A stretch of 64,000 bases of DNA, taken from Escherichia coli. Lineage in GTDB: Bacteria; Pseudomonadota; Gammaproteobacteria; Enterobacterales; Enterobacteriaceae. A model generated the notes under the pieces. That model had not been told where the DNA came from and did not search any database. It saw nothing but the letters and a program-made list of their open reading frames with translations. The DNA is taken from assembly GCF_017348835.2 (NCBI RefSeq), contig NZ_CP071375.1, one strand, 5' to 3'. Made by a program: the position numbers and the translations under genes. Shown here in pieces: positions 18,025 to 60,508 of this stretch (its first letter is position 1; each line of letters starts with the position of its first letter).

Positions 18025-21000
18025 ATGAGCAAACAATCACAGCATGTATTAATTGCCCTGCCCCACCCGCTGCTTCACCTGGTCAGTTTAGGTTTAGTCT
18101 CGTTTATCTTCACCCTTTTCTCGCTTGAGCTTTCGCAGTTTGGCACCCAACTCGCCCCACTGTGGTTCCCGACGTCCATCATGATGGTGGCGTTTTATCG
18201 CCATGCCGGGCGCATGTGGCCGGGAATTGCGCTGAGCTGTTCGCTGGGAAATATCGCCGCATCCATCCTGCTTTTTTCCACCAGCTCGCTGAACATCACC
18301 TGGACGACCATCAATATTGTTGAAGCCGTGGTCGGGGCAGTGCTGCTACGTAAATTGCTGCCGTGGTATAACCCCTTGCAAAATCTGGCTGACTGGCTGC
18401 GTCTGGCACTCGGCAGCGCCATTGTTCCGCCTCTGTTGGGGGGTGTTCTTGTTGTCCTGCTGACGCCCGGAGACGATCCTCTCAGGGCATTTTTGATATG
18501 GGTACTGTCAGAATCCATCGGCGCTCTGGCACTGGTGCCGCTGGGATTGTTATTTAAACCACACTATCTGCTGCGCCATCGCAACCCACGGTTGCTTTTT
18601 GAGTCGCTGCTCACGTTAGCCATCACACTGACGTTAAGCTGGCTTTCGATGCTGTATCTGCCGTGGCCTTTTACTTTCATTATTGTGCTGTTGATGTGGA
18701 GCGCCGTGCGCCTGCCACGAATGGAAGCTTTTTTGATCTTCCTTACCACGGTGATGATGGTGTCACTGATGATGGCCGCGGATCCCTCCCTGCTTGCTAC
18801 GCCGCGTACGTACCTGATGAGCCATATGCCGTGGCTACCGTTTTTGCTGATCCTGCTGCCCGCCAACATCATGACCATGGTGATGTATGCCTTTCGTGCG
18901 GAACGCAAACACATTTCCGAAAGCGAAACCCGCTTTCGGAACGCGATGGAATATTCCGCTATCGGTATGGCGTTAGTGGGCACCGAGGGACAATGGCTGC
19001 AATCCAACAAAGCGCTCTGCCAGTTTCTCGGTTACAGTCAGGAAGAGCTGCGCGGACTCACCTTTCAGCAACTGACCTGGCCGGAGGATCTCAATAAAGA
19101 TCTCCAACAGGTTGAAAAGCTGATAAGCGGTGAAATAAACACCTATTCAATGGAAAAACGCTACTACAACCGTAATGGCGATGTTGTCTGGGCGTTGCTT
19201 GCCGTCTCACTGGTGCGCCACACGGATGGCACGCCGCTCTATTTTATCGCTCAGATTGAAGACATTAACGAGCTAAAACGCACCGAACAGGTGAATCAGC
19301 AACTGATGGAACGCATCACGCTGGCTAACGAAGCGGGCGGGATTGGCATCTGGGAGTGGGAGTTGAAGCCGAATATTTTTAGCTGGGATAAGCGGATGTT
19401 CGAGCTGTATGAAATTCCTCCACATATCAAACCGAACTGGCAGGTGTGGTACGAGTGCGTGCTGCCGGAAGATCGCCAGCATGCCGAAAAAGTGATTCGT
19501 GATTCGTTGCAATCACGCTCGCCCTTTAAACTGGAATTTCGCATTACCGTAAAAGACGGTATTCGCCATATCCGCGCCCTCGCCAACCGGGTACTGAATA
19601 AAGAAGGCGAAGTCGAACGCCTGCTCGGCATTAATATGGATATGACCGAGGTTAAACAGCTTAACGAGGCATTGTTTCAGGAAAAAGAGCGCCTGCACAT
19701 TACGCTTGATTCCATCGGTGAAGCCGTGGTCTGTATTGATATGGCGATGAAAATTACCTTTATGAATCCGGTGGCGGAGAAGATGAGCGGCTGGGCGCAG
19801 GAAGAAGTATTAGGTGTTCCGCTCCTGACGGTGTTGCATATTACTTTTGGCGACAACGGACCATTAATGGAGAACATTTACAGTGCCGACACCTCACGTT
19901 CCGCGATCGAACAAGATGTGGTGTTGCACTGTCGGAGCGGCGGCAGTTACGACGTGCATTACAGTATTACGCCGTTAAGTACTCTGGACGGCAGCAATAT
20001 TGGTTCGGTTCTGGTGATTCAGGACGTTACCGAATCACGCAAAATGCTGCGCCAGCTGAGCTACAGCGCCTCCCATGATGCACTGACGCATCTCGCCAAC
20101 CGCGCCAGTTTTGAGAAACAACTGCGTATCCTGCTGCAAACGGTAAACAGTACGCATCAGCGACATGCACTGGTGTTTATCGATCTTGATCGCTTTAAAG
20201 CGGTGAATGACAGCGCCGGGCATGCGGCGGGCGACGCTTTGCTGCGCGAACTGGCGTCGTTGATGCTGAGTATGCTGCGCTCCAGTGACGTGCTGGCGCG
20301 GCTCGGCGGTGATGAATTTGGTCTGCTGCTGCCAGACTGCAATGTTGAAAGCGCTCGTTTTATCGCTACACGTATTATCAGTGCTGTGAATGACTATCAC
20401 TTTATATGGGAAGGCCGGGTACATCGGGTAGGTGCCAGCGCCGGGATTACCTTGATCGATGACAACAATCATCAGGCGGCAGAAGTGATGTCGCAGGCTG
20501 ATATCGCCTGTTATGCCTCCAAAAATGGTGGACGGGGCCGGGTGACGGTTTACGAACCACAGCAAGCTGCCGCACATAGCGAACGGGCGGCGATGTCGCT
20601 TGATGAACAGTGGCGGATGATTAAAGAGAATCAGTTGATGATGATCGCCCACGGTGTCGCTTCGCCGCGGATCCCGGAAGCGCGTAATTTGTGGCTGATT
20701 TCACTTAAGCTCTGGAGTTGCGAAGGCGAGATTATTGATGAACAAACATTTCGTCGTAGCTTCAGCGATCCGGCGCTTAGCCATGCTCTTGACCGCCGGG
20801 TATTCCACGAATTTTTCCAGCAGGCCGCAAAAGCGGTTGCCAGTAAAGGCATAAGCATCGCCCTCCCCCTTTCCGTTGCCGGTTTGAGTAGCGCCATGCT
20901 GGTGAATGACCTGGTTGAGCAGCTGGAAAATAGCCCTCTACCACCACGGTTATTACATCTGATTATTCCGGCTGAAGCGATTTTAGATCACGCAGAAAGC

Positions 21001-58511: not shown

Positions 58512-58644
58512 AGTTTGCTCCTGCCATAACGTGAAGAAGCAATGACCTGGTGGTCCGTGACTTCCCTACGCTGGCATTATCCAGATCAGGTGATACGGGT
58601 ATTTCTCAGCCTTCACGCAGAAGGGCACCCCGAGTCGTTTGGTT
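58512..58644 (-). promoter_or_regulatory. TPP (THI-box) riboswitch in the thiM leader
   Basis: Minus strand reads aaccaaacgactcggggtgcccttctgcgtgaaggctgagaaatacccgtatcacctgatctggataatgccagcgtagggaag…ggcaggagcaaactATG, which matches the well-studied E. coli thiM aptamer and expression platform as I remember it. Confidence 0.9.
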
Positions 58645-58733: not shown

Positions 58734-59006
58734 TTATTTGATATATGAATCCAGCACCTTCAGAACGACATCCAGATCTTCTTCACGTTTTAGCTCATCC
58801 CCCTGGTGAACGATGTGTTCAGTTAGATGACCTTTAATCACTTCCCGCATCAGACCGTTTACCGCGCCACGGATAGCAGCAATCTGTTGTAAAACTGCAG
58901 CGCATTCGTGCGGCTCGTCGAGCATTTTCTTGAGCGCCACGACCTGGCCCTGAATCTTACTGGCACGTGCTTTCAGTTTCTGTTTATCACGGATTGTATG
59001 AGACAT
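58734..59006 (-). CDS. rcnR: Ni(II)/Co(II)-responsive repressor RcnR (CsoR/RcnR family)
   Basis: 90-aa [51 protein letters not shown]…. Confidence 0.93.
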
Positions 59007-59054
59007 GGCAACACCTGGTTAACAAGAACATGAAAAATCATAGCACTATTAATC

Positions 59055-59089
59055 TACTGGGGGGTAGTATCAGGTACTGGGGGGGAGTA
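59055..59089. promoter_or_regulatory. Two RcnR operator sites (TACT-G6/7-AGTA) in the rcnR-rcnA divergent promoter region
   Basis: tactggggggtagta (59055-59069) and tactgggggggagta (59075-59089), inverted TACT/AGTA half-sites around G-tracts. Confidence 0.8.
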
Positions 59090-59126
59090 GAATCAGATTG
59101 CCGAATTAATACTAAGAATTATTATC

Positions 59127-59951
59127 ATGACCGAATTTACAACTCTTCTTCAGCAAGGAAACGCCTGGTTCTTCATCCCCAGCGCCATCTTACTTGGTGC
59201 GCTTCATGGCCTGGAACCAGGGCACTCAAAAACGATGATGGCGGCGTTTATCATCGCCATCAAAGGCACCATTAAACAGGCGGTGATGCTCGGACTGGCA
59301 GCAACCATTTCGCATACCGCAGTGGTCTGGTTGATTGCCTTTGGCGGGATGGTGATCAGCAAGCGCTTTACTGCTCAATCAGCAGAACCGTGGCTCCAGT
59401 TGATTTCCGCAGTGATCATTATTGGCACCGCGTTCTGGATGTTCTGGCGTACCTGGCGCGGCGAACGCAACTGGCTGGAGAATATGCACGAGCATGATCA
59501 TGAGCATCATCACCACGATCACGAAGATCACCACGACCAAGGACATCATCACCATCACGAACATGGCGAGTATCAGGATGCCCATGCACGAGCCCATGCC
59601 AATGACATTAAACGACGCTTTGATGGTAGAGAGGTCACCAACTGGCAAATTTTGCTATTTGGCTTAACCGGTGGCCTTATCCCCTGCCCGGCAGCAATTA
59701 CCGTGCTGTTGATTTGCATTCAGTTGAAAGCCCTGACACTGGGCGCAACACTGGTCGTCAGTTTCAGCATTGGCCTGGCGTTAACGCTTGTCACCGTAGG
59801 CGTTGGCGCAGCAATCAGCGTTCAGCAGGTCGCAAAACGCTGGAGCGGATTTAACACTCTCGCTAAACGCGCCCCCTATTTTTCCAGTCTGTTGATTGGC
59901 TTAGTTGGTGTGTATATGGGCGTACATGGCTTCATGGGCATAATGCGATAA
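59127..59951 (+). CDS. rcnA: Nickel/cobalt efflux permease RcnA
   Basis: 274-aa ORF with His-rich cytoplasmic loop (HEHDHEHHHHDHEDHHDQGHHHHHEHGEYQDAHARAH) between transmembrane blocks. Confidence 0.93.
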   Translation: MTEFTTLLQQGNAWFFIPSAILLGALHGLEPGHSKTMMAAFIIAIKGTIKQAVMLGLAATISHTAVVWLIAFGGMVISKRFTAQSAEPWLQLISAVIIIGTAFWMFWRTWRGERNWLENMHEHDHEHHHHDHEDHHDQGHHHHHEHGEYQDAHARAHANDIKRRFDGREVTNWQILLFGLTGGLIPCPAAITVLLICIQLKALTLGATLVVSFSIGLALTLVTVGVGAAISVQQVAKRWSGFNTLAKRAPYFSSLLIGLVGVYMGVHGFMGIMR

Positions 59952-60169: not shown

Positions 60170-60508
60170 ATGACCATTCAAAATAAGATGTTGCTGGGTG
60201 TGCTTTTGCTAGTTACCAGTGCCGCCTGGGCCGCACCAGCCACCGCGGGTTCGACCAATACCTCGGGAATTTCTAAGTATGAGTTAAGCAGTTTCATTGC
60301 TGACTTTAAGCATTTCAAACCAGGCGATACCGTCCCAGAGATGTACCGCACCGATGAGTACAACATTAAGCAGTGGCAGTTACGTAACCTGCCCGCACCT
60401 GATGCCGGGACGCACTGGACCTATATGGGTGGCGCGTACGTGTTGATCAGCGACACCGACGGTAAAATCATTAAAGCCTACGACGGTGAGATTTTTTATC
60501 ATCGCTAA
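60170..60508 (+). CDS. rcnB: Periplasmic Ni/Co homeostasis protein RcnB (YohN)
   Basis: ORF track 172 aa; ATG at 60170 gives the 112-aa product MTIQNKMLLGVLLLVTSAAWAAP… with signal peptide. Confidence 0.85.
   Translation: MTIQNKMLLGVLLLVTSAAWAAPATAGSTNTSGISKYELSSFIADFKHFKPGDTVPEMYRTDEYNIKQWQLRNLPAPDAGTHWTYMGGAYVLISDTDGKIIKAYDGEIFYHR

Follow-up and report, generated by a model that had tools for sequence, protein, structure and literature searches.

The two 15-bp elements that lie between the divergent genes rcnR and rcnA in a window of 64 kb (the whole stretch of Escherichia coli DNA analyzed, 64 000 nt) are the already described tandem operators of RcnR and not new ones; the new point is that the run of guanines in the rcnA-proximal element (site 2) is one base longer or shorter in some lineages of E. 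coli. Considering all observations, we assign a probability of roughly 90% to the explanation that the elements are RcnR operators, present in the window as the canonical allele, and that +1 and -1 changes of site 2 are occasional mutational variants and not a regulated switch.

The RcnR operator has been described as TACT-G6-N-AGTA, with two copies in the rcnR–rcnA intergenic region (PMC7055735; PMC3902906; PMC7105576), a definition which two of these papers credit to Iwig & Chivers 2009 (J Mol Biol 393:514) and Blaha et al. 2011 (Biochimie 93:434) (PMC7055735; PMC7105576). Metal-free RcnR binds each site, contacting the TACT/AGTA inverted repeats and recognizing the G tract, which is unbroken and A-form-like, by its shape, and Ni(II) or Co(II) releases the protein so that rcnA(B) and rcnR are de-repressed (PMC7055735; PMC3902906; PMC7105576). 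Operators of the CsoR/RcnR (DUF156) family, to which CsoR, FrmR, InrS and CstR also belong, are of type 1 or type 2. The RcnR sites, which occur in tandem, are of type 1: the tract is single and unbroken, and each site takes one RcnR tetramer. The type 2 sites of CsoR have split tracts, a spacing of ∼11 bp and two tetramers per site instead; throughout the family, type 1 sites show an inverted-repeat spacing of 6–9 bp and G/C tracts of 3–8 (PMC3902906).

Both sites in the window match TACT-G6-N-AGTA with 0 mismatches, and a search of the 64 kb with TACTGGGGGGNAGTA, allowing at most 2 mismatches, returned 2 matches, namely sites 1 and 2 (Table 1), where 0.15 were expected by chance and 1 of 100 shuffled sequences reached 2. 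The coordinates, the 20-bp spacing and the placement between rcnR and rcnA given in a first-pass annotation of this DNA agree exactly with the sequence, and its designation of the sites as operators of the rcnR–rcnA divergent promoter region is in line with the published recognition sequence. That annotation had also read one site as a G7 tract with no spacer base and the other as G6 followed by T. The letters are right but the difference in length is not, as both sites are TACT-N7-AGTA with N being G or T; the N of the published motif is G in site 2, and therefore the absent spacer base simply means N = G. The G7 run of site 2 is the only G/C homopolymer of at least 7 nt in the window, and four runs of exactly 6 were found (at 18438, 42786, 59059 and 61248); G/C homopolymers are thus scarce in this DNA, and both operator tracts stand out.

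Table 1. Operators, putative promoter elements and genes of the rcnR–rcnA locus, in positions of the window
Feature	Position	Strand	Sequence or description
rcnR CDS	58734..59006	-	90-aa ORF; Ni/Co-responsive repressor, CsoR/RcnR family; Pfam PF02583, E = 3.5e-21
Putative rcnR extended -10	59037..59045	-	TGCTATGAT (TGnTATGAT); from conservation
RcnR operator site 1	59055..59069	.	TACTGGGGGGTAGTA = TACT-GGGGGG-T-AGTA; G6 run 59059-59064
Inter-site spacer	59070..59074	.	TCAGG, 5 bp; start-to-start spacing of the sites 20 bp
RcnR operator site 2	59075..59089	.	TACTGGGGGGGAGTA = TACT-GGGGGGG-AGTA; G7 run 59079-59085
Putative rcnA -10	59087..59092	+	TAGAAT; overlaps AGTA half of site 2; from conservation
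rcnA leader / ribosome-binding stretch	59108..59126	+	ATACTAAGAATTATTATC before ATG; conserved
rcnA CDS	59127..59951	+	274-aa ORF; Ni/Co efflux protein, His-rich loop; Pfam NicO PF03824, E = 6e-70
rcnB	60170..60508	+	Periplasmic accessory protein; Pfam RcnB PF11776; RefSeq annotation

According to the list of open reading frames, a gap of 120 bp (59007–59126) separates rcnR on the minus strand from rcnA on the plus strand, and rcnB follows downstream of rcnA in the same orientation. The RcnR protein of the window is 100% identical to that of E. coli RcnR loci; other E. coli genomes carry, at the corresponding position, WP_000019944.1, which is named RcnR in RefSeq, and where the intergenic sequence matches nearly identically the gene order is rcnR/rcnA/rcnB with thiMD and yehA as flanks. 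Among the few strains fetched, at least six RefSeq protein accessions were seen for RcnA, including one length variant (810 versus 825 nt), and a single RcnR protein, WP_000019944.1, throughout; the His-rich loop of rcnA lies around codons 120–160. A TPP riboswitch (Rfam RF00059, 71 bits) is located upstream of thiM at 58546–58642 on the minus strand, just downstream of the rcnR stop codon, and the same element is annotated in RefSeq genomes. This is the sole Rfam match and lies outside the gap, and the idea of an RNA element between rcnR and rcnA was dropped.

Compared with K-12 (strain DH1), the window has the same base at every position of the two sites and of the stretch that separates them. 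It carries the canonical operator allele, and the E. coli K-12 RcnR operators, with the same locus, the same genes and the same two 15-bp sites, represent the known system from which the feature itself does not differ. Over the whole 120-bp intergenic region a single difference was observed, C in the window versus T in K-12 at 59029. Most E. coli share the T of K-12, and C is common to O157:H7 and assorted lineages.

We then looked at conservation beyond E. coli in 80 loci encoding RcnR relatives (76–100% identity), fetched with one genome per species from Escherichia, Citrobacter, Salmonella, Raoultella, Kosakonia, Rahnella, Hafnia, Erwinia, Edwardsiella, Morganella and one Vibrio; 79 of the loci were readable, and 75 distinct orthologous sequences were used for an anchored profile of the intergenic region. 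At least one RcnR site is present in 78 of the 79 readable loci. The core between the half-sites measures 7 nt in site 2 of 76 of the 79 loci (8 nt in two, 6 nt in one) and in site 1 of 68 of the 70 loci having at least two sites, and the start-to-start distance of 20 bp is kept in 67 of these 70. The combination of 7-nt spacer, 20-bp spacing and asymmetry of the two sites (typically G6T in site 1 and G7 in site 2) is found in ∼95% of the 79 loci. Site 1 shows substitutions within the tract in several genera (GGGTGG, GGGCAG, GGGGGA, AGGGGG and CGGGGG), all without a change in length, and site 2 is nearly always an uninterrupted G7. In contrast to these constant lengths, the 5 bp between the sites and the bulk of the other intergenic DNA diverge freely in the 75-sequence profile, from which we infer that selection maintains the core length, the distance between the sites and an uninterrupted run of G on the rcnA side. 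By this comparison the operator geometry is under strong purifying selection across the Enterobacterales, and conservation of the two sites in about 75 other species rules out a chance origin. The near-invariance of the 7-nt spacer in the 79 loci likewise indicates selection against changes in length, and argues against a tuning knob that is used routinely.

Some loci deviate in the number of sites. In Kosakonia, Phytobacter and some Enterobacter, AACTGGGGGGGAGTT forms an additional, site-like element 21 bp upstream of site 1, towards rcnR and ∼52–66 nt from the start codon of that gene, which brings the number of tandem elements to three in nine loci; a single site is present in Morganella, Erwinia psidii, Edwardsiella anguillarum and Enterobacter sp. 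CC120223-11. The rcnR–rcnA pair is repeatedly reported alongside mcr-9 on IncHI2 plasmids in the titles of published papers, and among 5362 places of the E. coli intergenic region we found one plasmid copy. Since the pair can be plasmid-borne, part of the operator similarity between species could reflect horizontal transfer.

The same profile points to the position of both divergent promoters. On the rcnA side, TAnnnT is kept in one register in nearly all of the 75 sequences (as TAGAAT, TATAAT, TACAAT, TAGATT or TAAAAT), and TAGAAT is the candidate -10 box of PrcnA. On the minus strand upstream of site 1, the conserved positions are precisely the TG, the TA and the final T of TGnTAnnnT, which makes TGCTATGAT the probable extended -10 element of PrcnR, with the putative -10 box proper at 59042–59037. 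If this element is correctly placed, position 59029 falls about at the start of the rcnR transcript. In front of rcnA, cTAAGAAt.ATT.TCATG is conserved across genera, and the 15–20 nt upstream of this motif are not. With these assignments, site 2 would lie at about -24 to -10 of PrcnA with its G7 run at about -20 to -14, i.e. in the promoter spacer, and site 1 at about -44 to -30 of PrcnA and about -39 to -25 of PrcnR. Site 2 would thereby cover the PrcnA spacer and the first part of the -10 box, and site 1 the -35 zone of both promoters, so that a single pair of sites could block the two of them. PrcnA has a poor -35 region, in keeping with the published description of the native promoter as weak (PMC7105576). 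A generic sigma-70 scan, which requires a spacing of 16–18 nt and 4 of 6 matches per hexamer, gave no hit at the conserved -10 elements because of these limits and the poor -35 boxes; three hits of that scan were dropped (one inside the rcnR coding sequence, one far upstream, one ending 1 nt before the rcnA ATG). No terminators were found in a scan for them.

In order to determine whether the tracts vary within the species, as the first-pass annotation had supposed, we analyzed a collection of 5426 complete E. coli genomes, 5360 of which contain the 120-bp region. Alleles were counted as exact matches to short queries spanning both sites; the 64-mer queries cover 5207 and not 5360 genomes due to low-complexity filtering, and the query for G7 in site 1 had a longer left flank. 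The canonical 64-mer was matched exactly in 4397 genomes. In site 2, G8 was matched exactly in at least 98 genomes and G6 in at least 118. In site 1, out of ∼5360 genomes, G7 was matched exactly in 27 and G5 occurs in 36 (17 exact matches and 19 that show an additional difference). In the genomes that are left, point substitutions elsewhere than in the sites account for most cases, such as C>A at 59094 or G>T at 59073. Tract length does vary between E. coli strains, as supposed, and the one-base difference of the site-2 run in some lineages is directly observed; nevertheless, ∼95% of the E. coli genomes and 96% of the species keep exactly 7 nt. A literature search on rcnA/rcnR together with homopolymers, phase variation or laboratory evolution surfaced nothing relevant, which is not proof of absence.

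Larger changes were observed as well. E. coli WW2 (NZ_CP081881.1, 2501–2643 of the fetched locus) has a 23-bp tandem duplication, TACTGGGGGGGAGTAGAATCAGG, corresponding to window positions 59075–59097, which results in three RcnR sites, a doubled TAGAAT box and an intergenic region of 143 bp; its rcnA measures 810 and not 825 nt. In E. coli 097H6 (NZ_CP187781.1, 1467–1581 of the fetched locus) a 5-bp deletion of GAGTA (window 59085–59089) removes the AGTA half-site of site 2 together with the two leading bases of the putative rcnA -10 box, making this strain a predicted natural operator/promoter mutant. Like the G6 and G8 alleles, the three-site duplication and the half-site deletion belong to other E. 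coli strains and are absent from the window. Escherichia whittamii Sa2BVA5 has a 150-bp deletion corresponding to window 59007–59156, with its junction in an imperfect 17-nt direct repeat (CATGGCAACACCTGGTT / CAAGGAAACGCCTGGTT; window 59004–59020 / 59154–59170). It is left without the intergenic region and the first 10 rcnA codons, and rcnR and rcnA stand head to head without promoters.

The alleles of site 2 were then followed through haplotypes. A query of 4063 bp from O111:H- 11128 was identical over its whole length, G6 included, in 45 genomes from many laboratories, which where labelled are O111:H8, O111:NM, O111:H- and one O111:H2. The next matches, O26:H11 where labelled, are identical save one extra base, and direct comparison of 11128 with O26:H11 11368 showed the two to differ, over 4 kb, by a single G of the site-2 run. 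With a query of 4065 bp from an O121:H19-type genome we found ten genomes of the same length, i.e. with G8 (eight identical, one with a single difference and one near-identical genome labelled O103). G8 is present in 9 of 9 genomes of the O121:H19 haplotype, to which the nearest G7 haplotype is 99.8% identical, and a second G8 clade comprises four genomes. As a control we used the G6 run within the dgcE coding sequence (18438–18443), this being the length of control run that the window offers, as it contains no G7 control. In the same collection the run is one base shorter in 7 genomes and one base longer in 0–1, i.e. rates of ∼0.14% and at most 0.02%, respectively, approximate counts read from alignment spans and identity ties; compared with site 1, which has the same length, this is ∼5-fold fewer losses and at least 25-fold fewer gains. 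The dgcE haplotype of the window (80-nt stretch) is rare, with two genomes matching exactly. The G5 allele in the seven genomes would frameshift the diguanylate cyclase, and these may be either true pseudogenes or errors of assembly. Judging from the haplotypes, some tract alleles are real and fixed in clades, namely G6 in O111:H8/NM and G8 in O121:H19.

What do such alleles do? In our model, the G7 of site 2 is a slippage-prone homopolymer that has repeatedly given rise to +1 and -1 alleles in E. coli. Such a change would bring the AGTA half-site 1 bp closer to TACT or move it 1 bp further away and, given the promoter assignment, would shorten or lengthen the PrcnA spacer between -35 and -10 to the same extent, and might in this way modestly alter basal or induced rcnA expression. 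An effect of tract length on rcnA is plausible in view of the deep conservation of the 7-nt core and of the predicted location within the PrcnA spacer. A measurable effect of the alleles on rcnA regulation, the tuning of Ni/Co de-repression which the first-pass annotation had in mind, is nonetheless a tentative proposal that we hold to be rather improbable, and we are just as reserved about the broader idea that the site-2 run is a recurrent mutational hot spot whose +1 and -1 alleles are heritable variants in the expression of the Ni/Co efflux pump.

The alternative which survives best is that the alleles are real and functionally neutral, i.e. that RcnR is loose in its reading of tract shape and tolerates a core of 6–8 nt, and slippage causes drift with no consequence for Ni/Co homeostasis; we regard this as a serious possibility, at somewhat below even odds. 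It would explain the fixation of the alleles in clones that are epidemiologically successful, it is compatible with the 6–9-bp spacing and the G/C tracts of 3–8 of type 1 sites across the family (PMC3902906), and site 1 tolerates substitutions within its tract in several genera. Against this, the spacer stays at 7 in 76 of 79 and 68 of 70 sites even where the tract has changed and the flanks diverge, and a length that is constant despite sequence change is therefore likely to be selected. Moreover, the variants sit at the tips, in single species or clones, as would be the case for mildly deleterious or condition-specific alleles. The near-invariance across genera thus argues that changes in core length are probably not neutral in the long term, while the fixation in successful clones and the family range of 6–9 bp argue that +1 and -1 changes are at most mildly consequential.

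A contingency locus, in which the G7 of site 2 switches at high frequency within a strain and gives rise to subpopulations with Ni/Co efflux ON/OFF or high/low, would be a more far-reaching interpretation. Phase-variable homopolymers in promoters are exemplified by the poly-G/C tracts of Neisseria meningitidis porA and opc and the poly-C tract of Bordetella pertussis fim. The rcnA run resembles these tracts in being a G/C run between the putative -35 and -10 elements whose length differs between isolates, +1 and -1 alleles recur independently in several lineages, and no other G/C run of at least 7 nt occurs in the 64 kb. Unlike the Neisseria and Bordetella tracts, which comprise ∼9–15 nt, it has only 7 nt, is stable within clones (45 of 45 O111 and 10 of 10 O121-type genomes), is held at a single length from genus to genus and at the same time forms the core of a repressor site. 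In an enteric bacterium with intact mismatch repair, 7 nt is a short run for slippage at high frequency. Together with the large majority of E. coli genomes and species that keep exactly 7 nt, these points leave within-strain switching with very little probability, and the +1 and -1 alleles look like occasional mutational variants and not like a regulated switch.

Tract-length variation in public assemblies mixes real alleles with errors, and a part of it is certainly assembly error. G/C homopolymers are error-prone in long-read assemblies; both tracts are one base short in at least four genomes, several variants cluster by sequencing project (an ET frog/sediment series and a CDC PacBio series), and the K-12 derivative ER2683 has G6 in site 2. 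Within the haplotype of the window itself (C at 59029), G6 is found in just 12 genomes, which are scattered across lineages and not fixed in a clade, and we rejected G6 as a lineage marker within this haplotype. The extreme version of this argument, in which every length difference is a sequencing or assembly error and the tract is biologically invariant, is highly unlikely and untenable as a complete explanation because of the clade pattern (G6 in the 45 O111:H8/NM genomes from many laboratories against G7 in O26:H11 on the same 4-kb haplotype, G8 throughout the nine O121:H19-haplotype genomes, the O103 genome and the second, four-genome clade), and the low rates of the coding G6 control speak against it as well.

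For the RcnR operators, the comparative data add a quantitative picture of constraint, in which core, spacing and the G6T/G7 asymmetry fit the published shape-readout model, and the conservation profile in addition suggests where both divergent promoters are placed. For homopolymer polymorphisms in public assemblies in general, they call for caution, as real alleles and assembly errors occur side by side. The natural one-base alleles fixed in major Shiga-toxin-producing lineages bear on how the distance between half-sites affects a repressor of the CsoR/RcnR family and on whether the set-points of metal efflux differ between pathogenic clones. If the tract alleles do change the expression of the pump, O26:H11 and O111:H8 would provide a ready-made isogenic comparison with one base of difference in 4 kb, and the EHEC clones O111:H8/NM (G6) and O121:H19 (G8) would represent naturally arisen regulatory mutants with a changed basal level of rcnA expression, which might show altered Ni/Co tolerance or an altered supply of nickel to hydrogenases.
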